A DNA stretch of 64,000 nt from Psammoneis japonica (Eukaryota). Below, piece by piece: positions 5,420 through 64,000 of this stretch. Position 1 is the stretch's first letter. Every line of letters begins with the position of its first letter. The position numbers and the translations under genes were made by a program. The DNA lies in assembly GCA_008632985.1 (NCBI GenBank), contig QPGO01000052.1, positions 372,001 through 436,000 of the forward strand. Direction: 5' to 3'. The notes under the pieces are model-generated. The model saw nothing but the letters and a program-made list of their open reading frames with translations, made no database searches and was not told the origin of the DNA.

Positions 5420-8400
5420 GGTGCCCTGCGCACTTGGCATTTTCGAGTGTCACATCATCTGGTGTGGGCAGAAGGTTTCGATTAACTCGACTCGAACAAA
5501 GCGAGAGTGGAGTCGTCGTCAGCTCACAAAAGCAACCCGCCCAGCAGGTGTTAAAGTGTGGAGAACTGACAACTGCACCCATCACCGAAGGCAGCTGCAC
5601 TCAAGGACAAGGAACAACATGAGAAGCAAAGTGCAACATGCAGACAAGAGGAGCTTGTGCAGAAGCAGAGTGTCCAGCCACAGCACCAGCACCAGTGGCT
5701 GAAGAGGCACACCCGAGCAAGGAGAAGCAAGATGCAACAAAAAGCAGAGAGCACCTCCAGCTGTTTGTTGGAGCAGCAAGCAGCCAGAGCAACAACAAAA
5801 AGAAAAGAGCAAAAGAGGAACAGAAAGAAGAGCAAAATCCAGGCATTTTGTGTTGGCAAAATGCTCGAGAGCTCCGCAGCACACAGTGCTTCGCAGAGAA
5901 GCACCAAGATCATGAGCAAGAGTGGCAGCAGCAGCAGCAGAAAGGCAGCTCTGTGCATTGGAGCAGCAAGCGGCCAGAGCAACAGCAGAAAGAAAAGATG
6001 AAAAGAGCAGAAGTTCACAGGCATGCACCAGCATCCGCGGCAGTCAGAAATGATCTCCAGCATGTGTGCTGGCGTGCAAGGTGGGCAGCAGCAGAGAGGC
6101 AGGGCAAAAAAAAACAAAGGCTTTTTTTTTTAGAGAAATTAAAAGCTTGTTTTTGTGAGGATAGCATGAGCAAAGTCAAGAAGCCAAGCAGAGAGAAGCA
6201 AGCCAACTTTGTGCAGCCTTTGCACCAGGTGGCGGCTCAAGAGTGCACACTGTCCTTCACCGTCGCTGCTTGCGAGGCACCAAGAGCAGCAGCTGCTCCT
6301 GTGCTGGCCAGCTCCCAGCTGCAAGAGCTCAGCCTCTTGCACTGCCAACTCAGAACACTTTGTGGCAGAGTTGAAAAGAGCAAAATGCTTTGATCAATGT
6401 GTGCAGCATGGTGGCAGGAAGGAAGTGGGTGAGACAAGCTTGTGAAGTGGCCACGCTGCAAAAGAACAAATGACAACAGAGAGAGAGACAGGAAACAAGC
6501 AACAGCTGACAATGACAAATCTTCCTGCTTGGAATGCCTTCACATTTTTGTGTTCACTGTCCTTGTTGTTTGCATTGGACTGGTGACATTCATGCCACAA
6601 GATCTGCCATCTCCTTGTGCGCTGCACAACAGCGCAGTTTAAAAATGCGTTTGACTAATTTGGTTAAAGTGACAAAGGGGCAATGTGTGATGACTCTAAA
6701 AAATGTCACGTTGAGATGGCAGCAGTGTGAGCTTGGCTCGTGGCAAGACAACAGACATTGGAGAGGCTTGTCCAATCTCAAAGGAAAGACAAGTGAGAGC
6801 AACAGCAAAGGAAGTGAAATTGCCAACATGTGAAATTGCTTGGGAAGCAAGAGCATTGACCAATGCCTTGTCAGTTCCACAAACACAACCCCACCTGCCA
6901 GGTCTGTTTTTGCCACCATTTGTCATTGTGATGACACACATTTTGCAGGAAACAAGAAACAAACTCCAAAAATGTGGTGTTAAATTTCACTTTGGTGCCA
7001 AACCTTTCAGGTGTGCACATGTGCACAGCAGAGGGATGTTGGCCAGACAGAGTTTGTGGCTCCAATGTAGTTCACGTGCAAGTGTGTAAATCCGAGTGCC
7101 ATGTGTGTCTGAGAAAGAAAATGTTGGGCACGCAGAGAGGAGCAGCAACAACCATGAGCCACATGACCGCGAATGGGGGCCAATGTGGTCAACAGAGACA
7201 AAGAGAAACAACAGACAGACTGGAGAAAGTCATGCCAGTTTTGACCACAGTGACTCAGCGGCACACAGAGGGCAATTCTGAGGATGTGCTTCTCATTTCA
7301 AAGGCACCATTTGAGATGGTGTGGCAAGACAGGCCAGAGTGTGAGTCCATCATCGGCCGCCAAAGCGGTCCCCACAGAACAGCAGACCCAATCAGGATTT
7401 GAGAGTGTGTCTGCACAAAGATGGTGCCACATGGCATGACCACAGTCAACACAAACAGAGAAAGGGTGGGAGGTGCATCCACAGAATGGCGCTGAATGGC
7501 GTGGTGACAAACAGCGCCAATGCACGAGACACTCCCATCTGTGCAAGCAGACCATGCAAGGGGTTTTGTTGACTGACTGGGAGGGAGAAAGCCCTTTTGT
7601 TTTCACCATTGGCATCTCCCAGGAGAGACCTTTGGCAGTTCCATGGTGCTGTCTCCCACCCTGCTGGACAATGAGGGACCCCTTGGGCTGGCCTTGTTCC
7701 CGCTCATCTTGTCTGTCATCTGCTCCTGCTTTCATGCAGCAACTCTTGGTCCAGCCAAGGAGGTGCTCTCTTTGCCAGCTTGGAGTCCAGGCATCAATTT
7801 TGTGACTTTGCTGTTGCTGTGGCTGACACTTTCTTAGAGTTGGCTCTTGCGACACACTTCTTGCAAAGCTGGTTGGCGCAAGACAAGCTCAAAGCCCAAC
7901 TGCCAAAGAGGCAACAACTCCTGCATCCAAGCAAGGATGTTCTCTTGGCTTTCCATGTCCAAGTCAAAGCCAACCGCTGCCTCTCATGGAATTTGATTTT
8001 GTGCAAACTTTGTGACAAGAGGGCAGATGCTGTCAAAACCCAAGTGCTCATGAAGCATCCCAAAAGGAGTCCAGTCCAGAACACATGTGATGGATCTGTC
8101 ATTTTCTTGCTCTTCATTGGCACAACAAATGATCTTTGCACAGATGTTTTGTCTCTTTTGCTCTTGCTGGCCAAAGCAAATGCAAAGTCTTGCCTGAAAC
8201 CAGTGTGTCACAAGCTGCAAAGAGACACACAGAGAAGAGCTCTGCAGACTGCAAAATTCCAGCAGGCACAATGATCCATGTGGAACAAGCTGTTGTCAGC
8301 TTTTGGTTGCACAGCTGAGCAGAGCTGATGTCAGAGCACCAGCAAACACAGTGGAGACAATGTGGGCTTGTGGTCAAGTGCTGGGACCAGCAGCATTTTC

Positions 8401-8850
8401 TGGCAGCACCATGAGCTCCACTTTGGAGAGTTGGAGAACAGTTTGGGGTGGACCAGAAGAAAGACAGCAGGCCGTGACAGTTGGAGCACAGTGTGCAACT
8501 CTGTTTCACCCATGGACTCTGTCATTTGCCCTGGGGCTTGGAAATCCTGCTTGCCATGTTGTCTGACACTCCTGATCCACTGTTGGCAGATGCATGTCTG
8601 CACTTGATGTGATTGAGATTCTTGCTGCTGTGAATCCCGCTCAGAGCAAATGAGCACTTTGGCTGTTTCCAAGCAATGTCCTCCATCCACATTGCTCCTC
8701 ATGGTAGGTCAGAATGATGTCATTGGGTGGCACTGCACTTCGTGTCCTGTCCAGGATGTGTTGGCTGAGAGCAAACAAGCTTCAGAGAAAGCATTTGCTG
8801 TGTTGACAAGATGAGGGTGCGCGAGCAAGAGTTCATTTTTGAGCCGGTAA
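5420..8850. repeat. TpA- and CpG-depleted degenerate block 1 (old TE/repeat-derived, family not identifiable)
   Basis: About 14 TpA by manual count in ~3.3 kb; strong TG/CA excess; many overlapping C/H/Q-rich ORFs with no recognisable domain. Confidence 0.7.
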
Positions 8851-9128
8851 AAAATCAAGCCCCCTCCAGTCATCCTCCACAACTGGATCCATTCGATCCG
8901 CAGCAGGTGCCATGGCTTCGATACTCAGAATGGATGTCTTTCATGAAGATATGCAGAGAGAGAGCACGAACCAGACTTGCAAGATTCTAAGGATGTTTCA
9001 GGATTGACAACCCATGATTACATTAAGAAGGCACTTATTCACCGCACTGCTAACTCCTGCTATGAACTCTGGTAGTTGCTACTCAATTTTCTGACGCCAG
9101 TCCATCAACAGCTTGGAGCTACCGTAGT

Positions 9129-13857: not shown

Positions 13858-14179
13858 GGAATTCAATCCGTAATTCTAGATTTTGAAAAAAAACAAATCT
13901 ATATGTCTGTGTTTATGGTACCCGTAAGTTACTTTCCGATTCCGCAACAACCCCCCGTGTCTATTCTCTCTCGAAAGTACTCGTTCAGATCAAAATTGCT
14001 TTTGCTCGCGTTGAGGAAGGTTGATGAAGTTACGAGCCGACTTCTCGTCTGTATCAAGACAAATCTTTCCTGTAAAATCAGAAGTGTCAACGCCAGTGTC
14101 ATTCTCCACCAACAAAGAGAAATTTGCAAGATTCTGTTTCGCATCCATCCGCCTTCGACAAGACTTTTATTGATGCCAT

Positions 14180-16220
14180 GGCAAAGGCTTCACTGGCAGC
14201 CCCTGCAATGTGTCCAATGGCTCAATGGCTGCCACCTGGACAGCTTCCATTTGAAGACCCATCCAACCCAGACCATTGTGACCCAAACAGTGAAGAGGTT
14301 GATGGTGAACCATGTTGGGTGAGCAAGACAGATGCAGTCAATCCATGTGACAATCACAGTGACAGCTCCTTCCAGCAAGCCCTGCACCATTCCATCTGCA
14401 ACTCTGTTCTGAGCAAATCTCCCAGCAATGTCCCAGTGCACCCACATCAGTGATGACATCTGTGCCATCACTTTCACATTTGACTGTCCCCTCAGGCATC
14501 CCTTTGTGGAGCCTGGCAAGGATCCATCAAATTTCTCTTCTCAGCCGAATGGTGCTGCATTGCTGACACTTTCAAAGGCTCCCTCAGATGCACCTTTTGT
14601 TGATTTCCTGAGCATGGCTCCTTGGCATTGCGCCATGGACAATTTCCTTCTCTGAGCCCAGCAAAGTGTCGTTGACAAAGGCATCTTCTTTGTGACCTCA
14701 GCAAAGGTGACATGTCTTTGACAAAACCCTTGGAAATGCCTTCTGTCACCACAACCACAGCTCTTTCTGCAGCAGGCCCAATGCAGTGCCATCAGTGGCC
14801 CCTTCAATGATGCCAACCTTTGACCCATCAAAAAACCAAGGGTGGACCCAGCACCCAGCAATGAGCCACCTGGAGCACCACAAAATGAAACCTCAGTCAA
14901 GTCCAGTGGCATTTTTTCGAGTTTGCCATCACTTTTTCCAAGGGGAGAATCTCTCAGCACTGTCCCCAATGCAGCTCCATTGATGACACCGTGTCACATG
15001 CCCAGTTTTGCATTTTGCACTCTCCACTCTCTGCAGCTCCTTTGTTGACTCCAAACAATGAGCTGACAAGCAAGCCAAGCACTGTGCTCCATCACATGAG
15101 CCATTTGTTGTTTCAAATGAGTGATCTCCAAGTGATGTCCCAACCAACAGACTAGCTGCCAGGGAGCTCAGCACACTGTTCATTCATTGGTGCCATGAAA
15201 AGCACCTGGCAGCATGCCACCTGTTTCAAAGTGGGAAAATCAGCTGACCTTCCAAGTGCAGCATCATCAAAAGAGACTTCTTTTGCTCTGCCCATGCTGC
15301 CTTCCACCAGTCTCAGTTGCCACCCATCAAAATCCCCTTTGTCATTTGTTTCCACAGTGCACTTGGCAACAAGTTTGCTTGGCAAAGCTCCCTCCACTGT
15401 GTGTGGCATCTTTCTCACTTGCAGCACACAGCCATCAGCGTCACTTTTGGTGTTGCCATTTTCCACAACTTTGAATGAACCAAGTTGGCACCTCAGCACA
15501 CAACTGTTGGCTGCACCTTCAACACCACCATCGTTTGCCCCCAGGAGAAATCCAGCCAACATTTCAAGGATGCTGGCATGCCAAGTGGAGCTCCACCTGG
15601 CAGTTCTGTTAGAAAGGCATCTGCCAAATCCATGCTGTGTGGTTGCAGACCCTTTTTTTGCATCAAGGTCTCCACAAGGGATCATGACTCCTCTGTGTCC
15701 ACCGCTTGCTGCAGCTTCCACACCCAAAGCAACAAGCAGGTGCACATCAAGGGCCAAGTTCTTCCACACAACATCAAAATCAGCTGCAGGGAGCATGTTC
15801 CTGCACCCAAAATTTGTTCGGGATCTTGGCTTCTGTGAGAATGCCACGAGCTGTTGAGAAGGGGCATTTGTTGTCGCTTGACCAGACCGCCCACACATCC
15901 AGTCCATCCAACACAGTGTTTGGCTTTCTTCCTTGTGTGCACCAAGAAGCAGCACATGTCGTCCACATCAACAACAAGGGTGCAACTGCCATTGGCAGAT
16001 GCCTGATTGGCTTGCAGCGCTGAGGAAGTTTTCACAAACAATGGGTCGCATGCACGCCATTCCCAAGAAAGGGGCTGCTGCGACATGCTGCCAGCATTGC
16101 AGGAACAAAAAACTCGCCCTCGATGCTGCCGCAACTGCAGACACATTGAAAGAACACCTCATAAAACAAAAAATGATGCAAAAGGTGTTCAAAGCGTGCA
16201 TCACCACTCACCACCCTCTT
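14180..16220. repeat. TpA/CpG-depleted degenerate block 2 containing decayed coding-like sequence (PSxxPS-like repeats)
   Basis: Very few TpA between 14.2 and 16.2 kb; fragments such as SKAPSDAP, PSVAPSMMP, PAPSNEPP in shifting frames. Confidence 0.6.
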
Positions 16221-16398
16221 GAGCTGCATTGCAGAAAAGTCGGTGCCTCGGAAAACAGACCTGGGACGAAACATACAAAACCTTCATAAATAACTATTAT
16301 TTCTTTTTTCAATCAACGAAGACATTCTTACGTCATGTGCGATTTTTATTGGAATTTTCAAAGATGCCGGCTCGGCTCGCGATCCAAAAACCAATGCC

Positions 16399-22008: not shown

Positions 22009-22284
22009 TGACAGGATTTGAACAGGATTTGGATGCGCGCGAAGCATCGCGCGCTGTTTAGTTTACCGCGCACAGTTTTGTGTGCTTTAGTTCCGCGCGT
22101 TCGCGCGCGATGTAGTTTGCTTTCGAGCCACAAGGCTCACAAGAATAATAACAGTAGCCCGATTATACCGACTTACACGTCTTTCGGCTCCTGTAACGGT
22201 CTCTGAGCAGAGACTCATCTGCTATTTAGACAGCAGTAAGGAGTTATTGTTTGAATTCTTGCCATTTGCCTTCATTTTCTGTCA
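22009..22284 (+). repeat. 5' LTR
   Basis: Aligns without gaps to 28876-29151; 10 mismatched positions, all transitions. Confidence 0.97.
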
Positions 22285-22301
22285 GATTAACAGTCTTGCT
22301 C
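22285..22301 (+). other. Putative primer-binding site complementary to a tRNA-Asn(GTT) anticodon arm
   Basis: GATTAACAGTCTTGCTC; reverse complement GAGCAAGA-CT-GTT-AA-TC reads as anticodon stem, loop and 2 nt. Confidence 0.6.
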
Positions 22302-28928: not shown

Positions 28929-29151
28929 TTTACCGCGCACAGTTTTGTGTGCTTTAGTTCCGCGCGTTCGCGCGCGATGTAGTTTGCTTTCGAGCCACAA
29001 GGCTCACAAGAATAATGACAGCAGCCCGATTGTACCGACTTACACGTCTTTCGGCTCCTGTAACGGTCTCTGAGCGGAGACTCATCTGCCATTTAGACAG
29101 CAGCAAGGAGTTGTTGTTTGAATTCTTGCCATTTGCCTTCATTTTCTGTCA
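28876..29151 (+). repeat. 3' LTR
   Basis: Direct repeat of 22009-22284 followed by TSD CAAGA. Confidence 0.97.
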
Positions 29152-35425: not shown

Positions 35426-35531
35426 GTTGTTCCTTCAAAAATTGTGAGAGAGGGCGTTGGAGGGAGTTTCACTGCATGCCGGTGGAGCTTGGTACTTTTT
35501 CTACCCTCATCTCCTCGAAACCGGAGAGTAA

Positions 35532-35548
35532 GACGTCATCTGACGTCA
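35532..35548. promoter_or_regulatory. Tandem TGACGT(CA) bZIP-type boxes upstream of paralog B
   Basis: GACGTCATC-TGACGTCA about 110 bp upstream of the ATG; the same GACGTCATC lies at 34321-34329 upstream of paralog A. Confidence 0.45.
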
Positions 35549-35639
35549 CAGTTACTCGAATCCCATCCAAACTGACGTGGTCGATGCCCTCTCGCTGTTC
35601 GCGCACCGAAGTGCAGGAGGTGTTCCAACTTACTGTAAA

Positions 35640-47600: not shown

Positions 47601-48300
47601 GCAACTCTTGTGGTCATCACTTGGCATTGGAGCTGCATGCGCTGTTTCCAGAGGAGAGGTTTTCACCCTTTTTTTGTGCCGCCATGTCCCCAAGCCTGTC
47701 CAGAGACACCAGCTTTCTGTTTTTCCAAATCCTGTGCATGCTTCTTGAGTTGCTTTTCATGGAGAGCTTCTTCTTGTTGTTTTTCCTGCCTCACCATGCT
47801 GCTGTTGTTTCGTTTTTTCACTTTCGGCCTTTGCTTTGCACACTTCTTGGCCTTTGGTGTGCTCTTGGTCTGTGATCTCTTGTGGTGCACACATGACAAC
47901 AATGTCCTCCATCCAGCATCAACCCCCCAGCAGATGACAAGCTGGCCCCAGCCCGCCAGTGCCCGCTTCCTGCTGCCATGTGTGGCAGTTGACTGCAGTG
48001 ACCGCCCTCTCGTTTCTCAGATGTCTTGGGTGCTTTTCCATGTTGACGACTGCTCGACTCCTCTGCTCTCCACTCTCTCTCTGGCTTTCTCATGAGTTGG
48101 GCTGATCAAAACCTTCGGCCCACATGAACATTGCATCCCATGGACTTCAGCATGCAATCCCTTTCATGCTCATGAGATCAAAAATGGCAAGCGACAAAAT
48201 CATTGCGTCCATCAGAAATGTCTCATTGCCCTTGTCTAGCCATGAAGCTCGACGACGCGTCCTTGTTTTCTCATCATGTCACCTGCTGAGTTGGCATTCA
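35640..48300. repeat. TpA/CpG-depleted degenerate block 4 (nested TE remnants)
   Basis: Roughly 40 TpA in ~12.6 kb by manual count; contains the decayed copia below. Confidence 0.75.
41207..47029 (+). mobile_element. Decayed Ty1/copia element of a second family (RT core deleted, 5' LTR partial)
   Basis: LTR 3' ends match (41207-41243 vs 46991-47029, both ending CTGTCA); PBS-like GGTCATGGCC at 41244; WHQHLGHP, DQGGELC, QSGPVKRSH..KFWPCAF (integrase); GCRTLLGELLCAC; AEAEF, CIDN, NPSNDLTKALG (RNase H); purine tract 46837-46845. Confidence 0.88.
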
Positions 48301-48529
48301 CGACTACCGAGCGATACATGCATGCGTACACACAGTACAGTACCGGTACGTACGTAGAATTTTTATGTAGGGCTAGCTAGAGAGAGAGATAGGGGCGGCG
48401 GCGGGACGGGATAGTCATAATTTTTGAATTTTTTTTTTGTGGCATTCTCACATTCAATCAACTGCATGCATCTGGCCTCGGCCTCGCACAAGACACAATA
48501 AGGCATTCACTCCTGCATGTTGCTTTGTG

Positions 48530-51279: not shown

Positions 51280-51413
51280 TATCAGCCGCGACGCGGGGTG
51301 TGAGCGAACTGCAAAGGCAGAGATGAAAAGGACTGTCTAATCTAATAAATAGTTGCGCACATCTAATCGGTCTTTCTAAAGAGTGAACAAGAATGTGTCT
51401 ATCTTCCCGGGTG

Positions 51414-53177
51414 TTACATGCGAAAGATGCCAAACTTTGTTTGGTTTGGTTCGCATCCAGCTCGGCACGCCACGGAAAGGGAGCAACCCAGCACCATGCG
51501 GGTGTCTGCAGGATCAATGATGCCGTCATCCCACAGACGGGATGTAGAATAGTAACTGCTGCTTTCAAGGCTGTATTTTTCCAAAATCGGCCGCTGGAAC
51601 TCGGCCTCTTCAGCGTCGGACCATGTTTCTCCTCGCGCTGCAATGTTGTCTCGCTGGATAGTGGATAGGACGTTTGCTGCTTGCTCACCACCCATTACGC
51701 CAATTTTCGCTCCCGGCCACATGTACAAGAACCTAGGAGAATAAGCTCTCCCACACATGCCGTAGTTTCCGGCTCCATAGCTTCCGCCAAGAATGAGCGT
51801 GATTTTAGGAACGTGTGTTGTAGCTACTGCGGTCACGAGTTTTGCTCCATGCTTTGCAATTCCTTCGTGTTCGTACTTGGTACCGACCATAAATCCGTTA
51901 ATATTTTGCAGAAACAGTAGTGGCACGCCTCGCTGACTACATAATTCAACAAAATGAGCTGCCTTGAGCGCACTTTCTGAGAACAGGATGCCGTTATTGG
52001 CGACGATTCCAACCTCTTGTCCCATGATTTTTCCAAAGCCCGTCACAATGGTCGTTCCATAGTTAGCTTTGAATTCATGAAACCGAGAACCATCAAGGAT
52101 CCTCGCTAGTACCAAGCGCACATCGACTGGTTGTTTAAGGTCGATCGGAAGGACAGCTCCCAATGAGCTAGGATCATACAATGGCTCCTCCCAATCACCG
52201 ATCTGTGACGTTGCGTTGGAAGACGAGTCTCCTAAACAAGCTACAATATCACGAGTGATACGGAGGGCGTCCTCTTCTGTCTTGGCCAAATGATCCGCCA
52301 CACCGGATGTTGTACAGTGCACATGAGCACCTCCGAGTTCCTCTGCAGACACTTCTTGGCCAGTCGCGGCCTTGACAAGAGGCGGACCACCTAGGAAAAT
52401 AGTTCCGTTGCCCTGTACCATGACAGTCTCATCACTCATACTGGGTACATAGGCCCCACCGGCAGCACAGCTGCCGCAGACGACTGCAATTTGCGGAATG
52501 CCACGACTGGACATTTGAGCTTGGTTGTAAAAGATACGTCCAAAGTGGTTTTTGTCAGGAAACACTTCCGCCTGTTTCGGTAGGAAGGCTCCTCCAGAAT
52601 CCACCAAATAGATGCATGGTAACTCATTTTCCAAAGCAATTTCTTGCGCTCTGAGGTGTTTCTTGACCGTGATTGGAAAGTACGTCCCGCCTTTTACTGT
52701 AGCGTCGTTGGCAATAACCATGCACTGACGCCCCGCCACGACACCAATTGCTGTGACAATGCCTCCGCTAGGAATATTTTTCTTCTCATCTGTATCAAAG
52801 CCGGCTAGAGCTGATAGCTCTATAAGGGGCGTTCCTGGGTCACACAAACGATCAATGCGTTCCCTTGGTAACATCTTGTTCCGAGCCTTGTGCCGCGCCA
52901 CAGAGTCGCTGCCTCCACCCAATCGAACTTTCTCAAGCCGTTCTTCTAGCTCATTCACTTGATAAAGTGTTCGATCCATAGCTTTTTGAAATAAATCACC
53001 CTTTTTGTCCAGCTCGCAGTCCAGAAGCGGCGGTGGCTCGTGAACAGCAATCTCGCGAAAACAATCCGATGCTGTGAAAGTTGACAGGGCTCTTCTTCTC
53101 GACACTTCAAAGCAACGTGAGGTTTGAGTCACTCGCCCCAAACCTCTGCTTCCCTCAATACACAGACGAGCTAGCAT
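51414..53177 (-). CDS. MCCC2: 3-methylcrotonyl-CoA carboxylase beta subunit
   Basis: [58 protein letters not shown]-terminal FGIFRM. Confidence 0.96.
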
Positions 53178-53416
53178 CGTTTTGGATAAAAATAAACCAA
53201 GAGGTCGTGTTCAGGTGTTCAGTCGGTGACAGCGTGCCGAATGTCATTGACAACAGGCATTTCGCAGAATTGCAGACAAGCCGAATTTCAATCAGTTCCG
53301 GGTGCTTTTGTGTCAAATCAGTCACGCTTTGGCTTGAGTCACGACCTGCTTGCTTGCAACCGCGCGATCGCGCGAATCGGAAACGAAGACGGACAACGGA
53401 CAACGACTATTAGACC

Positions 53417-53950
53417 ATGATGATGGCTAGTACCGACGAGGCGAAAGCTGGAGCAACGCCAACTACTGTATTCATGAATCAGAGCCCATCCTTGACCATT
53501 CGAATTGTTGGTCTGGGCCAAGACTTCACTTTGGTGGACTTGGACTCATCAACAACGATTCGCCAAGTCAAAGCAGAAGTGGAGGCGAGAACCAAGCTTC
53601 CATCATGTTATCAGCGATTGATTGCGCGAGGGAAAAAGCTTGACAACGATGATGCAACGTTGTCTGAGATTGGCATTGAAAATCGTACTCGTTTTATGCT
53701 ACTCCACAATGCGTCATATGCTACTGATCGGCAAGCGTTTGAAACGATTGCTGCTCTGGAGGAAGAAATCGATGAATTAGAAGGAAAGGTCGACAGCACA
53801 CCACCAGAAGTACTGCAGGAGCTAGCAACTCAATTATGTTGTAAACTGGATGGTGTAGACACGAATGGATCTGAATCTCTCCGAGCTTTGAGAAAGAAAG
53901 CAATTGAGAAAGCCAACGCGATTGGCCATTCAAAGGACACGGACAAGTAA
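53417..53950 (+). CDS. Ubiquitin-like + BAG domain co-chaperone (BAG1-like)
   Basis: UBL segment (QRLIARGKKLDNDDATLSEIGI) followed by BAG-like helices (TQLCCKLDGVDTNGSESLRALRK). Confidence 0.85.
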   Translation: MMMASTDEAKAGATPTTVFMNQSPSLTIRIVGLGQDFTLVDLDSSTTIRQVKAEVEARTKLPSCYQRLIARGKKLDNDDATLSEIGIENRTRFMLLHNASYATDRQAFETIAALEEEIDELEGKVDSTPPEVLQELATQLCCKLDGVDTNGSESLRALRKKAIEKANAIGHSKDTDK

Positions 53951-54028
53951 CAAACAACATCATTGGCGGATTTTTGGTACTGGTACTTTAGACTTGAATT
54001 TAAAAATATGACGCATTCGTTTAATCTA

Positions 54029-55217
54029 TTAGTCCATGGTACATGAGCTCCCATCATCGCTGCTGTCAGGACGCATCGTAATGCCCACACTTGTTAGAAA
54101 GAACGGTTCGCCATGAAGAGTAACTTTTCGCCAGTGAGCTGTAATCGTATCGAACTTTTCGTGTGCACCATTTTTTATATATAAGTTGATCTCGGCAGTG
54201 CCATCTGCGTGTGGTGTAACATCACCCTCTTGAAATCCTACAAATTGGCAAATCAGGGGATGCATAGCCTTATACAAACTCTCTTTGATGCTGGATAGGC
54301 AACACAAGCAATATGCGTCGGTGAAGAAAATTGATGTAAGAACAGTTGCGAGTTATTCTTTCCAAAATGTAGCACTTGAGGATCATACCTGAATCGGAGT
54401 AACACTTCTTCCTCCTTTGATATCCCCTGTACAGAAACAACAATGGATTGAAAGGAAAAAGCGGAGAATTAACCAGTGCTTCTTCGTCATACGCGCTTGT
54501 TGGTCCTAAGTTCTCACCTCAATGCGCCCAAGGTCCTCGATTTCTTGAGGGGTTAAAATGCGTTTCGCAACACTCCGTCTTTTCGAATGGGTGTATTCGA
54601 TATCGATTCCAACTCCCATTGCAGGAGCGTCAGGATCCGAATAATCTACTCTCGCGACGAGTGCAACTCCCGTCGTTCCCTTATGACTAATGGATCCCAA
54701 GAACCCCTTTGGCAACGTTGGTCTCCCATTGTCGTCACGTAGTATTATGCAATCGTCTATAGGCGCTTTTTCCTCCCGCAGTGCTTGTCGCATCGCTAGC
54801 CTCCTAAGTAAAATGTTTGCAACGCATACGTCGATTTAAGGCCCAATCCGAACGATACCTCCTCAGGATGCAAGCACCCGTTTATCCAGTGCTTGTCATT
54901 GCTTTCAACTTCAAACCGAGTCAACGCGTCGGGATGCGATGTCTCGTCAGACTCTGCTGCCAGTCGCAAGCCCACACACCGACCCTCGGGGAGCTCCAAC
55001 GTAAACAACGATTCGTACTTCTCGAGTTGCGTTTTTTCGACAATGGAAAAGTATCCACCGCACTTCTCATTCTCATTACTTGTCTAAGTGGCCACGTTGG
55101 TGAGCATGACAAATTGTTCAATGTTGCTCTGTGTCGTCTCAATAATATTCTCGTCATTGCCGATCCCGTTGTAGCAGAAAACGCTGTTGTCGTCCACAAT
55201 GACATGATTAAACACAT
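54029..55217 (-). CDS. 4'-phosphopantetheinyl transferase (EntD/Sfp-like); two introns and apparent frameshifts near 55090 and 54800; start uncertain
   Basis: LHPEE, GRPTLPKGFLGSISHK, GVGIDIE, LLRFS/IKESLYKAMHP. Confidence 0.85.
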
Positions 55218-55909
55218 TACAAGGAAGATCAACCGAATCGCCTGTCTTTGTCTATGGCGGTGAATGTCCCCACGCCTTATTGTTCTTTGCTTCGGAGAAG
55301 ACCCATGTGCGAGATTCATTCGACCTGCTGACAATCCTTTCCACGTGCGTCGACACGATGAAGCTGCCAACACAGAAAAAGTCCGGATGAAGTACTTGTA
55401 CTCAACACTCGGCTGCTTCAACTACAAGAGTTGCCATTGCAATTCTTTTTGATGTTTATTGGTTAGGAGGGGAACTCTGACTGAGAGGTTGAGGGTCGAG
55501 CGTAGAGCGTCGAAACACTGAAGGTCAGGCGTTATAAATGCGTTATGTACTGTACGTACCCATGGAAGCGGTTTTTGCGCCACATTTTCCCCGCCATTTT
55601 TCCTCGCCACGTCACTGAGAAATTGCGAGCTACTACTAGCGATAAAACTTTGACATTCCTGGAACACCCTGGTCTCATCATTTCTGTCGCTTCTGGTGTG
55701 TTGTTTGCAATTCCAAATTGTGCTCTACTAGTAGCTAGAGCTCTACTCTAGTTGGGCTAGAGCGCGGCACAAGCTGAACCTGTTCAAGGCAGAGGCATTT
55801 ACACGTTCTTGTGTTTCGTGTTGCGGCAAGCTGAAGGTTGAGGGTCAAGAATCTTTGGTGTTGGCACGCATCTCGAGTCGCTAGTCTGACTCCACTTTTT
55901 GAAATCAAC

Positions 55910-56609
55910 ATGCCTTTCTCACGACGAGATATCTTTGCGGTTGCGATGATTGCAACTCAATTGAGTTACGCAGCGAGTTTCTCAGTCAAACCGCCACTTT
56001 TTTCGTCGACACGCAGCATTAAGCGACCCCCCAATGTCGTTCAGCTATGCGGTGGAGGATCTGACGACGATCCCACCAAGGTTTGGTACGCAGGCATCGC
56101 CAACGGCATTCAGAACATTTTGACGAATTCTCCTCTCAAGGAGGGGAAGAAAGCCATTGTTCGTGCACTAGCGGGTGAATACGATGAAGAAGCCGTCCGT
56201 GCCAAGTTGCGTGCCTACATTGAAGGCTCCCCTGTTGTCATGCTGAGCTTCACCACGTGACCATTCTGCATCAAGGCCAAGGCGGTTCTTGATGCAAAAA
56301 ATGTCAAGTATGATGCCGTCGAACTGGATGTCGTGCCGGACGGTAAAGCCATCCGTGCGGAAATGGGTGAACTGTTGGGGAGAACCAGCGTGCCTGCGAT
56401 TTGGATTGGCGGCAAGGTACGCTTGTGGGAATTGTATGAGATTGTTTAAGATAGTGGGTGAAGTTTCGCATCAATCCAACACTGTTTTGTTTGTCCCGTT
56501 TCAGTTCATTGGAGGCTGCAATGATGGGCCCAGTGAGTACGGCGGACTTATGACGCTCGAGAATTCGGGCAAGCTTAACTCCATGCTGAAAGAAGTTGGA
56601 GTTATGTAG
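55910..56609 (+). CDS. Glutaredoxin with in-frame TGA at the first active-site position (U-P-F-C), probable selenoprotein, plastid-type presequence; intron 56417-56504
   Basis: VVMLSFTT-TGA(56258-56260)-PFCIKAKAVL..GRTSVPAIWIGGK|FIGGCNDG, all in one frame. Confidence 0.88.
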
Positions 56610-56685
56610 AGTCCCCGGCGAGGTTTTCGAACCCGTGCATATTCGATTGAGGTTGACAATCGAGAGCGCGTGCAATCTGTAGTTT

Positions 56686-56752
56686 CGTGTGAGAATGACA
56701 GCGGTGCTGGCATGCAGAAATTAGCATCCCGTCATCGCTTGACCAACACACG
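56686..56752 (+). promoter_or_regulatory. Eukaryotic SECIS-like element in the glutaredoxin 3' UTR
   Basis: Helix I CGTGTG/CACACG; ATGA...GA core; helix II AGCGGTGCTGG/CCGTCATCGCT; apical ATGC/GCAT mini-stem with an AAA-containing loop. Confidence 0.8.
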
Positions 56753-56903
56753 TTATCTACGCTTGAGACTCGAGTATTCCTTTGACTAGTCAGCATCTCT
56801 CGATCGGACTATGCATTAGAGAATTGGTCACGTGTGTATTTGGATTAGTTATAGCATCTTCTTTCCCGTAGTATGTTTTCATTTAAAAGAAATCGCCGCC
56901 TCT

Positions 56904-58805
56904 CTAGTCCTCGAGAATGATTTTCCCAGCTGGAATGGGTTTTCTCTTCTTCCCGGGCTCGACGGGGTCCTTGATATCGTCAAGCCAGCCAAGATTGTGT
57001 GGGCGCCCAATTGCACGTTCTTCGGGCACCTTGTAAGTACTCGCCTCTTCCTCTGTTCTGGGGGACGTCCCCATCGCGTCTTCGTTTTCTGGCACGCCAA
57101 AAATATCTCCTCCAAAGCTGAATACACCTTCTACACTCTTTACGAAATCCTGAGAAAAGAAAACAGTAGCGACTCCGGGTAAGATAAGGATAAGGCGTCC
57201 ATCAGATTATGAATGTTGTCGTACCTCGGCTCCTACTCCAACTGATAATTCATCCGGTCGATCAAGCCTCTGGTCCAAGAAACGAATAATGGACTGCTTC
57301 TCCGACTCGAAGGTATATGTTTGGAAAAATCCTGGTCCGCCTTCCTCTCCAATTAAAATTTCCTCGTAGGGGGTCTTTTCTTCTGGTGTTCCCTGCTCCA
57401 TTGCTTCGCACAAGCGATCGACGACGAACCAGATGTCCTCGTAAGGATCGACTTGCATGTTTTCCAGCTGTTGAAGTAAACGACGCATGCCTTCTCTCAA
57501 CCCAGCTGGCTCAATTTCCTCGGCTGGACAAAATTCTTGGTCGACAAACTTTCGGAGAGCGGTTCCATCCTGAATAGTGGATGCCTTCTCCAAGAATCGA
57601 ATTTCGACTGGCAAATCATCGAACAGCTCAGGCGTTTCAACGAAAAGCTTTGTCATTTTCAGAGCCATTGCCAGGATTTGCTCACAATCTTTCTTTTCCC
57701 AAATGATTTGGTTCTGAGGCAAAAATCTCTTGGGGTCGCCAATACTGACAATTTCAATCAAGTTTTCGCGATTTGGTGGCCCAAGCGCCTCGAGTTGTTC
57801 ACCATCTCTGTACTTCTGAGCCCAATGAGCTACCATGCCTTTCAGAACGAGATAGTCACCACAACGCTCATATATTTCTTTTCCGCAGAAAGACTTGAGA
57901 TCCAGATTTCCGAAATTTGGTCCAATGCGCTCTTCTCCGTCCAGGATGATTTGACGAAATGGTGCCGAAATATGATTTTCTAACAGAAAAAAGTGCTTGG
58001 CCAAATCGCGATAACCCCTGGCCGCATCCTTCTCACCGAGAGACTGAGCACGAAGCATAAGACGGACAAGTGTCCTTTTCATGTTGTGTCCGAGCCAGTC
58101 GCGATTCGCCAAGACAAAATCAATGGCCTTGTTCGCTACAGAAGGCGTCGGTGGCAGGCCTCTTGACCCATCTTCCAGCTTGACAGAGCAAGCCTCGCGT
58201 AGCAAATCGATAATTTCCTCAGCCTTGGTGGTTTCCGGATTAAATCTATATTTTGCCCGTACATCCGGTGGAACACCCGGGAACATTTGAGCCAATCGAT
58301 ACATTGGTCCTAAATCGCTTAGTTTGACCGCCTTTCGCGTCACAACGTCCATCACCTTTTGACCCTGTTCAATCATTTCAAAGCCGGTTTCGTCATCCAC
58401 AATAATCCGCGACACTTCAGGCCGCTCTGACTTTTCCTTCGCAATACGATTCCCGACCGTGGAAGCGCCACCAGTGATACTGTCAGCAGCAGTTGGTTCT
58501 TCTGGAGCAGCATCGGCGTTGTCGTCGTCTTCGCCAATGTACACTGGATCGTCTCCAGCAGCACTACTCCGGGTAGATGCCGCAGTGTCGTCGTCATCAT
58601 CGTCGAGTAGAACTTCACGAAGTCGCTTGTTTCGCATCTCTTGTTGTTGTTGTTTTTTCTGCTGTCTACGAGCTCTGCGATTCATGGCAAATAAGGTAGT
58701 TGTAGTGAAGGGCTGACTACGAGTAGGCGGCGAGAAGGCTTGACATGATTGACTGCAAAGCCACAGCGTCAGCACGCCGCTTAATGCCATCCATCTCCAA
58801 CTCAT
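56904..58805 (-). CDS. Hypothetical plastid-targeted protein (2 exons; intron ~57150-57224, junction phase uncertain)
   Basis: 532-aa ORF with signal + CQAF-SPP motif; second exon GFRKSVEG..IGRPHNLGWLD. Confidence 0.75.
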
Positions 58806-60066
58806 GATTTATAAGCAGAAAAGTTCAGGAACAACGGGTAATGAAGAGGAACGCAAGGTACAGTATCGAAAAAGCAGGAAGTGTACACTTGATGATGTTT
58901 CACCATCGCGCTCATCCAAGCCAAGCAAGGTTTCAACGAAAAGATGCCATTGACGAGTGACGCATTCAACAAACCCGGAGTTAGATTTTATGTGCGGTCA
59001 CAATCGCATTCCACGTGTTACACAATAATTACATCGGCTCATAGCCAATAAGACAGTGTGAATGCTATTCTTTGAACTCTCTACTCTTTGTGTCTACCTG
59101 CTACTGTTTCCATAGCTTGGCAGGGAAAGCGAAACTCCGGGGAAAATAGTAGAAGATGGGAGGAAATGCTTGACTTTCGTGTACTACTGTAGCTCTACAT
59201 ACGTGATGTAGCGAAAGACTACACTCTTGTATTATCTATCGGAGAACTGCAGAACTTTCGAGTCTTCAATTTTAAAGAAATGTGACATTGTAACTGGAAC
59301 AATGTCATCATTCATCCGCAAATGCATTCTAAACATTCTCCTTTTTCTAGTTGAAACATGGCGATGACGTGCCATTGTTAGATCGGAACGACATTGTGTC
59401 GCTCGCTGTTGTGCGACCGTGGCCGCTGATCCATGGTGCTCTGCGCGACAGTCGTTAGCATTGCATTCCGTTGGAGCAGGTGCGATGTTGTCGCGTCCAT
59501 CTAGGCATACATGAGAGGGATTCGCCAAAAGTCAGAGCGCAAGTGTGAAGCAAAATATAGAATACACAGGCTCGTTGGAAGGCTCTGTCGATTCAACCAC
59601 GAGTTCTGGCGTATAGCATAACTCTTAGTTGGCACGGAAGGGTCCTCCTCGAAGCGACGTGACCGCGCCGCTATGCCGCTCCGTGCGCCAGGACCAGCAA
59701 TGCTGCAAAGATAACGCGGTTCTGTCCCATCTCACTCTGATGCTGCAGACCCAATATTTTCGAATGGCCTGTCGTTAACAGCTTACTCTCGACTGACACT
59801 TTAGAAACGGGTCATTCTGAGACAGCAACGATGAAGTCGACGGTGCCCGGACTTGTTGATAGACACCAGTTGGGGAAAAACCTGCCATATAAATGTCATG
59901 TTCATCTCCAACAAGAAAGTGTGCGTAGCTTGACAACTGTGGCCATCATCCAACTAGGCAGGTAATAGGTGTTAGCAGCAGAAGGCGAGACTTCAGATTG
60001 ACCCTGGCAATGACTGGTCGAGCGACAGAGAGAAATTCAAACTACAATCTTTCCATAAACGAGTAC

Positions 60067-60894
60067 CTAATGATTGGCCTCCTCCATAGCTTCGTCCGCG
60101 TCGTCTTCTTCATCTTCGTCTCCTTGAGGAGCACTCCACCACGTCGTCAATCCAAGTCCGTCCTCACAGATGGAGCCGACAATATGCATGCTCGCTGGTA
60201 TCTTTGAATCTGAAAGATCTAAAGAAGAGCTTCTCTTTCGAACGGGACGATCTGGAAAGCTCTCTGAAGAATCCTTTGGGCTATTTTCATCTCCACCGGT
60301 GAGAGACTTTCTGTCCATAGATGTGAACAAAGACGATTGGGCTGTTGTCGTTGTGGTAGCTTGTACTCCCTTGGCGGTGTTTGTCACTTGAGTAAAATTG
60401 ATGGACTTGACTTTGAACCGTATCTGTGCACCAATATCCATTTCAAATCGATTTTCTTCAGCCGCTTCTCCAGTACCTTCTTCTTCGTCGTCGTACTGAG
60501 GAGTCCAAACCCATAGGCCTGATTCCTTTTCATACTGACTAGGACGAAGCATCCAATAAGCTGGGATGAAGACATCGTCAAAGAATCCCAAACTGACGCG
60601 GATACCATCTTGTGTACTTTTCGATATTGTTCCGAGACAGACCTCCTCGACAAAAGGCCGAAACACCACCAGTCGAACAATGACTTCATGATGTGCCCCT
60701 CCGTCCCCAGCCACACAGACACCGTCTCCAATTTCCAAGGCATCCCCATACCGACAAATCACCAAACCTACGTCCATAATCACGCGGTTGGGGTACTTTT
60801 TGTCCATCTCGCCATGAACTGAAGTCAAAGTCGGCTGTGCCAGCAGTGACGGAGGAATCCTTACCGTGTCAGCGACCGTCGTTAACACAAACAT
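60067..60894 (-). CDS. POLR3H: RNA polymerase III subunit RPC25/RPC8 (Rpb7 paralog)
   Basis: MFVLTTVADTVRIPP, KYPNRVIMDVGLVIC, RLVVFRPFVEEV, GIRVSLGFFDDVFIP, EDGLGLTTWW. Confidence 0.92.
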   Translation of the reverse strand: MFVLTTVADTVRIPPSLLAQPTLTSVHGEMDKKYPNRVIMDVGLVICRYGDALEIGDGVCVAGDGGAHHEVIVRLVVFRPFVEEVCLGTISKSTQDGIRVSLGFFDDVFIPAYWMLRPSQYEKESGLWVWTPQYDDEEEGTGEAAEENRFEMDIGAQIRFKVKSINFTQVTNTAKGVQATTTTTAQSSLFTSMDRKSLTGGDENSPKDSSESFPDRPVRKRSSSLDLSDSKIPASMHIVGSICEDGLGLTTWWSAPQGDEDEEDDADEAMEEANH

Positions 60895-61081
60895 TCTCGT
60901 GAAGAACAAAAATCCTTCTTGTGCTGTTGACCGTCTGAAACTTTTCTAACCTTGTATATCACTACTCTAGCTAGTGATACTTCCGTTCTACCACTTAGAT
61001 ACAGCCAACGTCATGCCATAACTGCAACAAGATAGAGTCGGGGGCAGGTTCCAGGGTACATACGATACGGTACGTAACGAA

Positions 61082-64000
61082 TTTTCATTGACCACTCAGT
61101 GGTTGGTGATTGCAGACTTTTTCGTGTCGGTCCGGCAGTCGGGCAGTCGGGCAGTCGGGTTGTCCGTCTGAATTTGAAAGTGTGTCCCTCGGATTTTGGA
61201 ACGGGATGGGTTGTTTAGTACAGATGAATTCTTCGGATTCGTAGAATGATCATTGAGGACATGAGAGGTCGTGGGGACATCCTAAAAAATCGATAAATTC
61301 CCTACGACGGGTACGTGGCACGGTTTTTCAGGAGAGCTCGAAAGTTCTCAAAAATTGGGATTGCCGGCGTGGCATGTTGAAAAATGTATTTTAAGTTATA
61401 AACAAAGATAATTAATCGTGAATTCTACACGAAACAGTCATATTTGGGAAAACATATCGAACAATAAGTGAGTTTGTGCGATGCGCTATTATGGCGATAA
61501 ATTGGAAAAAAAAGAGTGTCCGTGCACCTCGCTACAGCCCCAAAAATGGCATGAGACATCAAACATGACGGTCATCCGCGTCACCGGTGCGGTGGCCACG
61601 CCACTCAGCCGCCACAATGCCGGCCCCGGCGGCAGGGCCCTGCGCACGTGCAGGCAACACAGCATGCAACGGCACACACCCACACCCACAAAAAGAAAGA
61701 CAAGTGGTCAATGCTCCCCGCAGGCCTGGTTTGTTTTGATGAAGAACGAAGACCAAACATTGATTGAAGATGCCGTCATTCAGTGCGTGCTTGCTGGTGG
61801 CGAAATCCGGGGCGCGCAGCTATGGGAGGGGCACGCCGTAGAAATCACGCAGGGACGAATTTTCTTGGATCGAAACGAGAGTTGCCTTAGTCGACAGAGG
61901 GTGTTACGGCGGTCTTAAAATGGGGGGCAACTTTTTCATTTGCCTTGCATTCGTCGTTGACGAGATCGATGAAGTGACCACAATTTTCCCGTGCTTTGCC
62001 GTGCAATCATCACTGAAAACATTTCGATTTTCCGAAAATCCTGCTGTCGCTCGTTTGCAGTTTTGGAATGTCGCTGCAACTTTTGTCATGCCGACACTGG
62101 CCAATGTCAAAAGCAGAGGCTCTCACGTCTCTAACAATGCATCCCCAAGTCACCTGACTCCGCAGTTGGAAAGAACGTGAAACGGTGCTTTTGTTGCTTT
62201 TGCCGCACTTCACCATGTGATCACGACTGAAAATCCTTGATGTCTCGTTTGCAGTTTTGGAGTGACATTGCGGCCATTGTGATGCCAAAAGTGACCAACA
62301 TCAAAAGCAGAATCAATCACGTCTCTGACAATGTGTCTGCCACTTCAGCTGCCTCTCCAGTTGCAGAGAACGACCAATGGCATCTTTCTCTCTTTCGCCG
62401 CACTTCGCCGTGCAAAAATCGCCGAGTGCCAACACACGCCCATTTCGCGGTGGAACTGAGTTCTCATTTCAAAGCACAATGAGCTCCACCATTTTGTTCT
62501 TTCTGCTTGTCTGTTCAGGACATGATTCTTTGCAGCTTCTGATGTTGGTGTCGGCAGAGGCGGTTTGATGGCAGGTTTGGAGAAGACTTTGTCACAAGAG
62601 AATGCAAGGCGTGGCTTGTTTGCAGGTTTGCCACGGGGCTTCCAAGGCAGAGGCAAGCCCTTCTTTCTGGCATCAACGCGTGCTCTTTTGTGCACTGTTT
62701 GCTTTGGCATCTTGTCTGTCTCATCCTTGGTCTTGTTGAACATGAAGATTCTCGCATGGCGCCCTCGTGTCATCGTCTGGTTCATCGACAGCAAGCATTT
62801 CCTTCGCATTCATGACACCAAAATCCATTCCAGACTCAAGGATTGCATGACTCAAGAACACGGCATGAGCTGATTTGCGGATTTTCGTTGCTCCTCGGAA
62901 TCCAAATGAAAGGTTTGAACTGCCACCAACAACCTTTGCATGCGGACACCGTTCCTTGATGGTCTTTGTTGTTGATGAGGTCGACTTGCAGTTGGCATGT
63001 TCCTCCATGCCGGCGCCAATTGTCGACGCATTGGGGTCACACACAATGTCTGTGCCCACTTCGTGAATGTCGTGCGAGCGCTTGCATGTCCAAACCTTGT
63101 CCTCCTTGGTCGCTGCATGTCCTTGTTCGTCAAATGCCATGTCTGCTGCTGCAGCACCGTGTTTCTCCAACCATGTCCAACCACCCATTGCTCTCCACAA
63201 TGTGCCTCTCAGTGGCGCTCTTCCTGTTGACATGGCCGAAAACGCAGTGTTGGAATGCTTGTTGCTTGTCGTGAACTTGGAGTCGATCGCTCTCAATGTC
63301 TCAGAGTCCAAGAGCCTAAAAATCCTTTTCTCAGAGCTTTCATCATGACAGCAAGTTGTTTGCTGACAGACCAAGTCTCTGTGGTCTTTGTTTCCAGCAC
63401 ATGACAAAACCATTTCTCGCGAAGGTGTCATTTGGATGACGGCATGATGTTCAGATGAGATGTGAGGTCATTTGCAGACATTTCAAAATCACTTGATGAA
63501 ACTGCCACCAAAAATCATGCTTCGGAGCCCCTCTCCTAATTCGATGACGGTGGACACGATGGCATCAAATGTGCATCTTTTCACGTTGATCCTGAGGGTG
63601 CAAAAGCAATGTGGTGCGAAACGGCATGTTTGTTGGTCAGGTGTCGACATTGTTTTTAATGTCTCAACCAAATCGTTGTTCGAGACAGCCCCTTGCAGCA
63701 TTCCACCTGATGAGATGATGGCGGATGCAACACTTTGAAGGGCTGTCTGAAACAGTGATTCTGAGGGTGCGAAAGCGATTTGGTGAGAAACGGCAGGTTG
63801 ACTTGGTGGTCGCTTGGCAAACGTTGTGGCGGGAGTTGGAAGCCCGGCCTTGTGCAAGCACTGGACATTGAATGTTTCAATGCAATGAGCAGGAACAACA
63901 CTCACGCGGAATGCAATCCTCACAGCTGCTGACACTCAAACCATGCAGAAAACCCCATGCAGCAAACAAGTGCACAGTCTTGCGAAGCATGTGAGTCCCG
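61082..64000. mobile_element. Probable non-autonomous element with a Helentron-like left end carrying gene fragments; TpA-depleted from ~61.5 kb; runs off the window
   Basis: T-run, short hairpin ACCACT-C-AGTGGT, tandem GGCAGTCG x3 and GTCCGTCTG, then a TpA-poor mosaic interior. Confidence 0.45.
62510..63170 (-). pseudogene. METH: Fragment of cobalamin-dependent methionine synthase (pterin-binding region), degenerate
   Basis: HGAAAADMAFDEQG, DIVCDPN, GMEEHANC, GGSSNLSFGFRG, AHAVFLSHAI..GMDFGVMNA resemble MetH YGAAVVVMAFDEQG, DIIFDPN, GIEEHNNY, GGVSNVSFSFRG, IHAVFLYYAI..GMDMGIVNA; frameshift near 62745. Confidence 0.88.

Follow-up and report, generated by a model that had tools for sequence, protein, structure and literature searches.

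Probable TpA-targeted hypermutation of inserted and dead DNA in the diatom Psammoneis japonica

Introduction

A stretch of 64,000 nucleotides from the genome of the diatom Psammoneis japonica (GenBank assembly GCA_008632985.1, contig QPGO01000052.1, positions 372,001 to 436,000 of the forward strand), called here the window and numbered from its first letter, contains blocks of inserted or dead DNA that have lost nearly all of their TpA dinucleotides, and the genes and spacers beside these blocks have ordinary TpA content. The lost TpA have become TpG or CpA, and one of the targets is a complete Ty1/copia retrotransposon. A real, host-driven and TpA-specific hypermutation very probably stands behind this pattern. 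As an overall explanation we favour, with moderate confidence, a host TpA-targeted hypermutation of inserted and dead DNA like that of the chlorarachniophyte Bigelowiella natans.

Results

Six blocks almost free of TpA

Blocks were called by a two-state hidden Markov model on the positions of TpA, together with a 1-kb profile of the window. Six depleted blocks were obtained (5553-8921, 14074-16273, 19616-22058, 23108-33110, 35709-48236 and 61534-64000), which hold 139 TpA in 33,010 bp (4.2 per kb) versus 1,280 in the remaining 30,990 bp (41.3 per kb). Most 1-kb windows of the blocks have 0-8 TpA, and those of the young copia element up to 18. The edges are sharp to tens of bases: TpA is met each 5-70 bp up to positions 19615, 48237, 33111 and 16274, and essentially none is found beyond them. 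Since the spacers adjoining the blocks are TpA-rich, single-copy intergenic DNA in the window is not depleted, and within this window the depletion is confined to inserted or dead DNA, the rest being ordinary.

The original prediction, made from the letters of the window, had reported five blocks, about 14 TpA in 3.3 kb of the first one, and ordinary TpA in adjacent genes. The recount gave 13 TpA in 3,369 bp, and the depletion and the ordinary neighbours proved to be real, spacers included. The block placed at 19.6-33.2 kb is broken by a TpA-normal island at 22009-~22800, consisting of the 5' long terminal repeat (LTR) and leader of the copia element, so that the blocks number six. The blocks and their parts outside the copia element are as follows (o/e, observed/expected).

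5553..8921, no strand: old block depleted in TpA and CpG, origin unassigned; 13 TpA and 45 CpG in 3,369 bp; open frames without Pfam or PDB match
14074..16273, no strand: old block depleted in TpA and CpG, origin unassigned; 4 TpA and 28 CpG in 2,200 bp; without family match
19616..22008, no strand: left half of an old depleted block split by the copia insertion; 0-1 TpA per 200 bp up to the target-site duplication
29157..33110, no strand: right half of this old depleted block; TA o/e 0.02-0.09, CpG o/e 0.02-0.28
35709..48236, no strand: composite depleted block; 37 TpA in 12,528 bp
61534..64000, no strand: TpA-depleted block with near-normal CpG, extending past the window end; 9 TpA and 122 CpG in 2,467 bp

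Dinucleotide o/e values were strand-symmetrised, and 10 symmetrised dinucleotides were compared. Depletion is limited to TA and CG, and the rise is limited to TG/CA (o/e 1.80 in old blocks versus 1.16 in genic DNA); there is no depletion of AA/TT (1.21 in old blocks versus 1.14 in genic DNA), AT, GC, AC, AG, GA or CC. The o/e of TA is 0.60 in genic DNA, 0.04 in the old blocks, 0.19 in the copia interior and 0.06 at 61.5-64 kb, and that of CG is 0.97, 0.19, 0.91 and 0.78, respectively. In each kb of the old blocks a loss of about 38 TA and about 45 CG equals a gain of about 80 TG plus CA, and because the losses are offset in this gain, the GC content of the old blocks stays at 48%.

The low CpG o/e and the matching TG/CA excess, both seen in the composition of the old blocks, are those of CpG decay, which supplies about half of the excess there. 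TA loss makes its own contribution, as had been predicted, and the CpG part had not been separated from it. In the young copia element most of the interior TpA has been lost, the CpG is intact, and the LTRs are identical save for signature changes. The TpA process is faster than CpG decay and separable from it, because two blocks have lost TpA and kept CpG. Five of the related metagenome loci considered below (L006, L024, L045, L026 and L042) have CpG o/e of 0.10-0.44, raised TG/CA and ordinary TpA, a picture of simple CpG decay in which the TpA process has no part.

Direction of the change in a Ty1/copia element

The complete Ty1/copia element at 22009-29151 is nested in the older depleted block. 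Its membership follows from two direct LTRs of 276 bp (96% alike, with TG..CA ends), the target-site duplication CAAGA and a match to RVT_2 (E 7e-27). Relatives are 60-72% identical over the reverse transcriptase (RT) part, and one named relative is from Cylindrotheca closterium. The parts of the element are listed here.

22004..22008 (left) and 29152-29156 (right), plus strand: target-site duplication CAAGA, five identical bases beside both LTR ends
22009..22284, plus strand: 5' LTR, 276 bp, TG..CA ends, nearly unmutated; 15 TpA
22285..23257, plus strand: leader (5' untranslated region), TpA ordinary to high until ~22800
23258..28276, with a shifted continuation to ~28844, plus strand: Ty1/copia polyprotein frame, hypermutated yet open; RVT_2 match; a relative aligns to 28844
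28876..29151, plus strand: 3' LTR, partly mutated; 9 TpA

The LTR pair differs at 10 of 276 positions, and each of these is a transition in the TA/CG to TG/CA class. In six places TA of the 5' LTR corresponds to TG (three sites) or CA (three sites) in the 3' LTR, the two outcomes being interleaved; the remaining differences include one site with CA versus TG and two with CG versus CA. Thus, beside 7-8 TpA mutations there are zero non-signature differences in 276 bp.

The protein comparison leads to the same direction. In the RT part, compared with 80 relatives, 200 of 213 conserved columns are kept; six of the 13 changed ones are substitutions of tyrosine (Tyr, Y) by cysteine (Cys, C) or histidine (His, H), and two more are changes of TA to TG across a codon border. 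The first 1,200 residues were compared with 150 representative relatives, cells being pooled over 139 of them. The window has residues at 21 of 26 Tyr-consensus columns of this part (C 13, H 2, F 4, other 1, Y 1), versus Cys in 14 of 1,756 such cells (0.8%) of the 139 relatives. Taken together, the residues of the window at the 39 Tyr-consensus sites are C 18, H 6, Y 9, F 5 and I 1, that is, Cys or His at 24 of 39. At the DNA level, 17 sites carry TA in at least 60% of 80 related elements, and there the window has TA 8, TG 5, CA 3 and TT 1, so that eight of the nine changed sites have become TG or CA. Other dinucleotides are kept at 78-100% in the same comparison, except AT and AC, whose retention is lower because they are by-products of TAT and TAC codons.

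The polarity is therefore TA to TG or CA on both strands, by the LTR pair, the Tyr columns and the related-element DNA alike. This is the direction that had been predicted, and the spectrum is indeed TpA-specific, in that TA and CG are the only depleted dinucleotides and the LTR changes all belong to their class.

The open frame at 23066-28276 has 1,737 codons, and it stays open while its conserved Tyr codons read Cys or His; Tyr makes up 0.86% of the frame versus a median of 4.1% in 270 relatives. No new in-frame stops have appeared although the proteins are ruined, because a change of TA to TG or CA can never create a stop, and the suggested disabling by missense agrees with this. The TpA surviving in the frame are spread over the codon phases as 15/14/19, and this even spread therefore speaks of little filtering by selection.

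The context of surviving TpA (79 in old blocks and 51 in copia) is not uniform: TTAA, CTAA/TTAG and GTAA/TTAC are enriched, ATAT and GTAC are absent (chi-square p 1e-8). The baseline was 1,001 TpA out of 1,221, the first genic segment being left out, and the numbers are small. These contexts are a hint that a TA with A as its next base is seldom changed, and one with a pyrimidine in that place readily.

Strand bias and variation among copies

In the old blocks TG (2,768) and CA (2,736) are about equally frequent. The search for long single-strand tracts in these blocks by the TG-CA skew revealed mild over-dispersion only (variance 1.8-2.4 versus 1.35-1.45). CA exceeds TG in four of four 500-bp bins of the block at 14074-16273. 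At the left edge of the first block (5553-6052), CA 77 versus TG 30 was counted in 500 bases.

In the copia element, Cys is found at 13 of 16 Tyr-consensus sites of the 5' coding part versus 5 of 17 in the 3' part, and His at 2 of 16 versus 4 of 17. Cys and His outcomes also cluster along the element (6 runs in 24 sites, permutation p 0.028). This clustering, and a strand choice that follows the orientation of the element, point to an enzyme that handles a single strand in each pass and is tied either to transcription of the element or to intermediates of its replication.

The family is abundant. Its summed read-contig depth is ~70,000-130,000 versus ~50 for single-copy DNA, which corresponds to ~1,600 copy-equivalents at a likeness of at least 85%. 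At 27521-27522, where Tyr is invariant in 80 relatives, ~53% of the family depth reads TG and 47% CA, and at 27177 and 27435, which are TA in the window, TG or CA accounts for 52% and 68% of the depth. Because copies differ at the same TA, the mutations arose separately in copies or lineages and not from one odd master.

Two further observations concern the structure of copies. In one read contig of single-copy depth, 22304 is followed directly by 23003 and 698 bases of the TpA-rich leader are missing, so that at least one copia copy exists without most of the leader. At 28272-28276 other copies are one base shorter, and the alignment of a relative runs on to 28844 in another frame; in the copy of the window, the long frame is thus closed by either a frameshift or an indel of the assembly.

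Lineage and assembly controls

The TpA-poverty is not a trait of the copia lineage. In 80 related loci from metagenomes (462 kb) the TA o/e is 0.49-1.15, and the minimum in 1,557 one-kb windows is 16 TpA. Among 270 related copia polyproteins from public assemblies, seven have less than 2% Tyr (P0356, P0323, P0330, P0243, P0365, P0303 and P0324). Tyr is kept at 0 of 10 Tyr-consensus columns in P0356, 3 of 16 in P0243 and 0 of 6 in P0323, and P0356, P0323, P0243 and P0303 have at least two Cys at such columns. These Tyr-poor sequences hint that the same signature may occur in other organisms.

The assembly was checked with the contigs of run X1 (k-mer depth ~50). They differ from the window by 16 letters at 29517-31514 and by 22 at 31834-35431, that is, 38 in 5.6 kb, with ~1% differences. 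The restoration of TpA would need ~40 differences per kb, and the blocks are therefore not an assembly artefact. Single-base gaps between these contigs and the window number 12 in 2.0 kb and 17 in 3.6 kb, which suggests an imperfectly polished long-read assembly or another haplotype.

Contents of the blocks and their surroundings

Recognisable transposon protein remains are present in only two of the six blocks, and one block holds a fragment of a methionine synthase gene (MetH). A Pfam scan of 265 stop-free frames of at least 70 residues from the blocks gave RVT_2, one GAG-pre-integrase domain at the cut-off and, otherwise, sub-threshold matches at chance level. Four long block frames had no match among PDB sequences. 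Searches by tblastn, with 121 and later as many as 167 copia relatives as queries, gave no match beyond the young element other than its shifted continuation at 28407-28844, Rfam and tRNA scans of the window found no RNA genes, and the self-comparison of the window found no long paralogues except the LTR pair. Because of this lack of long paralogues in the window, substitutions in the old blocks are not polarisable. The predicted absence of an enzyme gene from the window holds in so far as no deaminase gene is among the Pfam matches.

44471..44944, plus strand: GAG-pre-integrase domain remnant (PF13976, E 1.4e-6, 28.4 bits, exactly at the curated cut-off)
62513..63176, minus strand: degenerate MetH fragment, pterin-binding part and start of the B12 cap; frameshift near 62746
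48237..61533, no strand: ordinary genic segment used as control; 522 TpA in 13,297 bp

In the block at 35709-48236 the 1-kb profile has a CpG step, with CpG o/e of 0.24-0.34 at ~41.0-47.0 kb, which suggests a middle-aged element at ~41-47 kb nested in an older one. A 43-bp end motif is common to 41203-41243 and 46987-47029. A second LTR pair at ~41.2/47.0 kb was considered and rejected, the alignment being limited to this 43-base motif.

The MetH fragment, remarked on in the original prediction, was identified with 165 scored candidates, 27 of which match at E <=0.01 (best 2.3e-46); these carry PF00809/PF02607 and were mapped by tblastn. It keeps 61 of 83 conserved columns. Among its changes, Y is replaced by H and by C, V by A (GCA) in three places and I by T (ACA), and its 144 residues contain no Tyr. 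About 14% of the conserved columns have non-signature changes, and TpA is at 3.6 per kb. Because this fragment carries the same signature, the process is not limited to transposon sequence. Beside it, at 62034-62412, lies a diverged tandem duplication of ~195 bases, whose units are 73-78% alike.

Pfam matches in the control segment are DUF726, methylcrotonoyl-CoA carboxylase beta, a BAG/ubiquitin protein, phosphopantetheinyl transferase and Rpc25. The best named relatives of the methylcrotonoyl-CoA carboxylase beta at 51414-53177 are from diatoms, namely Seminavis robusta (78%) and Nitzschia inconspicua (74%), and further named ones are from Cylindrotheca, Amphora and Mayamaea. With the Cylindrotheca relative of the copia element, they indicate a diatom as the source, by this evidence probably a raphid pennate one. 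In the TpA-normal island at 33111-35708, a contig of run X2 (33501-34216) joins 33849 to 33951 on the minus strand. The join looks like a removed intron of ~100 bases marking an unannotated gene, and run X2 may be RNA-derived, given its cover of genic parts only.

Discussion

Comparison with known systems

A preprint on B. natans (Mettrop et al., bioRxiv 10.64898/2026.01.13.699255) describes mutation-accumulation lines with 231 mutations in two integrated viral regions, of which 230 were A to G or T to C, and these all lay at TpA; the mutation rate exceeded the genome average ~1,000-fold. Coding sequences poor in TpA are enriched in that organism for reverse transcriptase and DDE domains, and the authors, who also state that ADAR prefers a 5' U, propose an ADAT2-like DNA adenine deaminase (bioRxiv 10.64898/2026.01.13.699255). 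The preprint makes no mention of diatoms, and in the literature searched there was no report of TpA hypermutation in diatoms, this preprint being the single description of it. The novelty suggested in the original prediction is thus reduced, since the same TpA-specific A:T to G:C hypermutation has been measured in the B. natans lines. New are the diatom case, its targets and the near-saturation; the kind of signature is known from one preprint.

The likeness lies in the spectrum, since nearly all changes are A to G or T to C and lie at TpA, which turns into TpG or CpA, and in its confinement to inserted DNA as TpA-poor clusters rich in CpA and TpG, the remaining genome being ordinary. The differences are several. 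The host here is a stramenopile and there a rhizarian; the targets here are LTR retrotransposons, relics and a host-gene fragment, whereas there they are giant-virus and virophage inserts; the depletion here is near saturation (o/e 0.04-0.19) versus 0.45 in a B. natans viral region. CpG decay, the spared LTR and leader and the strand-clustered outcomes are additional here, whereas the mutation rate is known from B. natans alone.

Ascomycete RIP is also a transition hypermutation in a dinucleotide context, which acts on both strands, is confined to segments and kills transposons. However, RIP makes TpA from CpA, lowers GC and makes stops, whereas here TpA is destroyed, and the process raises GC and cannot make stops. 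In the old blocks TpA/ApT is 0.05 and (CpA+TpG)/(ApC+GpT) is 2.03, so that both RIP indices are reversed, in line with the predicted opposition to RIP; PMC7884421 quotes thresholds of >=0.89 and <=1.03 for them, respectively. As regards duplication, the copia family has ~1,600 copy-equivalents and the MetH fragment is presumably a duplicate, and the old blocks have single-copy depth at a likeness of at least 85% and no paralogue in the window, a threshold beyond which saturated copies would have diverged. From the predicted confinement to repeats, the limitation to inserted or dead DNA stands, but a duplication trigger does not find support in these single-copy old blocks, and simple repeat targeting does not account for a 5' LTR and a leader that have been spared in an element of ~1,600 copies.

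Decay of methylated CpG likewise yields TG/CA and is present in the older blocks, but it leaves TpA untouched. Transposons of the diatom Phaeodactylum are CpG-methylated (PMC9998398), and such decay is to be expected for methylated diatom transposons. Editing by APOBEC3 or ADAR resembles the present case as deaminase-driven hypermutation that leaves dead copies with clustered mutations. Those enzymes, however, act on RNA or on one strand of complementary DNA and so leave changes on one strand only of the integrated copy, while here TG and CA are both found, interleaved in one LTR; Cys at 18 and His at 6 Tyr-consensus sites likewise involve both strands, although a regional sense-strand bias exists. 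To our knowledge, ADAR is confined to animals.

Proposed mechanism and timing

According to the favoured explanation, a host process would replace A:T by G:C at 5'-TA-3', whichever the strand. Its targets would be inserted or dead DNA, namely LTR retrotransposons, relics and the MetH pseudogene fragment, and flanking genes would be spared. TA would become TG or CA and Tyr codons those of Cys or His, so that proteins would be ruined in frames that stay open. The action would continue after insertion, far faster than background mutation, until TpA is nearly exhausted, and would run apart from the slower decay of methylated CpG, a further source of TG/CA. In kind it would equal the TpA hypermutation of B. 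natans. As to chemistry, the best candidate route would be deamination of adenine to hypoxanthine by an ADAT/TadA-like polynucleotide deaminase needing a 5' T and working on one strand per pass; we offer an adenine deaminase as the enzyme only tentatively.

It is likely that the process acts mainly on chromosomal DNA after insertion, because the LTRs of one element differ by interleaved TG and CA changes, because TG and CA are balanced in the old blocks and a non-transposon gene fragment is mutated, and because the MetH fragment is diverged yet TpA-poor and the B. natans mutations arose in integrated DNA. A background-mutation model gives 9-18 new TpA per kb at d = 0.05-0.10 versus the 3.6 per kb of the MetH fragment.

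Several points weigh against this explanation. This model of TpA regeneration is rough and rests on an assumed background spectrum, run X1, of unrecorded library type, may share its sample with the assembly, and both the chemistry and the trigger are what we infer. A further point is the distribution of changes along the copia element. The 5' LTR keeps 15 of ~16 TpA and the 3' LTR is only ~40% mutated; the leader (22001-22800) retains 11-18 TpA per 200 bp while the adjoining coding region is mutated, 15 of 16 Tyr-consensus sites being changed in the 5' coding region and 9 of 17 in the RT part. Marking of a whole inserted element does not predict a spared 5' LTR and leader, which better fit editing during reverse transcription or coupling to transcription. 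In addition, sense-strand outcomes prevail in the 5' coding part (C 13 : H 2, p 0.007), and positions 24107 and 24296 read TG in 94-100% of the family depth, and therefore the choice of strand follows the orientation of the element.

Alternative explanations

The main rival for the young family is editing during retrotransposition, in which a deaminase would act on the genomic RNA (sense TA to TG) and on the minus-strand complementary DNA (sense TA to CA), so that new copies would be dead on arrival, like APOBEC-edited retroviruses. Such editing would account for the spared 5' LTR and leader with the intermediate 3' LTR, for block edges that match the element ends without spill into the flanks, and for a strand bias that follows element orientation (Cys 13/16 in the 5' versus 5/17 in the 3' part) and recurs in the family majority at 24107 and 24296; opposite editing gradients of this sort and low editing of LTRs are predicted by the kinetics of reverse transcription. 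But it cannot explain three TA to TG changes of the 3' LTR alone that are interleaved with three TA to CA changes, and it leaves unexplained the near-total loss of TpA on both strands with balanced TG/CA in the old blocks, the MetH fragment (unless this is a retrocopy) and a TpA-poverty that persists despite background divergence. The mutations of B. natans, moreover, are reported to arise in integrated single-copy viral DNA. On balance, we regard editing during retrotransposition as rather unlikely to be the explanation.

A change of A to G on one strand is indistinguishable from T to C on the other, and in the palindromic TpA both give the same TG/CA outcome, so that thymine may be considered as the mutated base. 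A TET/JBP-like dioxygenase would oxidise T of TpA to 5-hydroxymethyl- or 5-formyluracil, which would mispair with G and lead to T to C. In fact, 5-formyluracil promotes T to C mutation, and in dinoflagellates 5-hydroxymethyluracil takes the place of T, preferentially at TpA and TpC. For diatoms, however, no evidence of such a modification emerged, although no search was aimed at it. TadA and ADAT enzymes, on the other hand, naturally act on A after U, and the authors of the B. natans work favour adenine deamination and name ADAT2 as candidate. Thymine oxidation seems improbable to us.

The remaining possibilities are of little weight. TpA-poverty intrinsic to the elements, through the composition of a master copy or selection against TpA, would agree with the rough match of young copia depletion to the coding region, and selection for TpA-poor coding under such a mutator is conceivable and may contribute; as sole cause it is contradicted by 80 related elements with ordinary TpA, by the replacement of Tyr invariant in 80 relatives, by the even spread of surviving TpA over codon phases, by family copies that differ at the same ancestral TA, and by the unrelated blocks and the MetH fragment that share the trait, and is very unlikely. 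Hardly better is error-prone repair in silent chromatin by a polymerase eta-like enzyme: its hotspot WA to WG (W, A or T), known from immunoglobulin hypermutation, includes A to G after T as half of the WA motif, but AA/TT is not depleted, and at conserved sites it is TA alone that has changed. Errors of base calling or polishing at modified bases that write TG/CA for TA would agree with the many 1-base gaps between the window and read contigs, but this least credible explanation is largely refuted by the X1 contigs, which agree on the depleted sequence, and by clean TG/CA states consistent with protein-level decay and LTR polarity.

Significance

Targeted hypermutation as genome defence is established for cytosine, in RIP and in the action of APOBEC. 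The present case indicates that TpA hypermutation is probably not a curiosity of one species and that it affects retrotransposons and dead gene copies as well as viruses. A large share of a genome can be shaped in this way, as one copia family with its ~1,600 copy-equivalents illustrates. The independence from CpG decay, the strand-clustered hits and the sparing of the LTR and leader are clues to the mechanism.

There are also practical consequences for the study of such genomes. Gene finders will be misled by open frames that are free of both TpA and stops, repeat libraries based on similarity miss hypermutated copies, and LTR divergence is unusable for dating insertions.

It is conceivable, though in our opinion doubtful, that diatoms and chlorarachniophytes share an old defence, in which a 5'-TA DNA adenine deaminase, guided to transposons, integrated viruses and dead gene copies, working on single strands in turn in connection with transcription of the element and independent of cytosine methylation, would form a mirror of RIP across the group of stramenopiles, alveolates and rhizarians (SAR). 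If adenine deamination is the true chemistry, a natural DNA adenine deaminase would be of interest to genome engineers, and if the defence is shared across SAR, its enzyme would be a natural DNA adenine editor.

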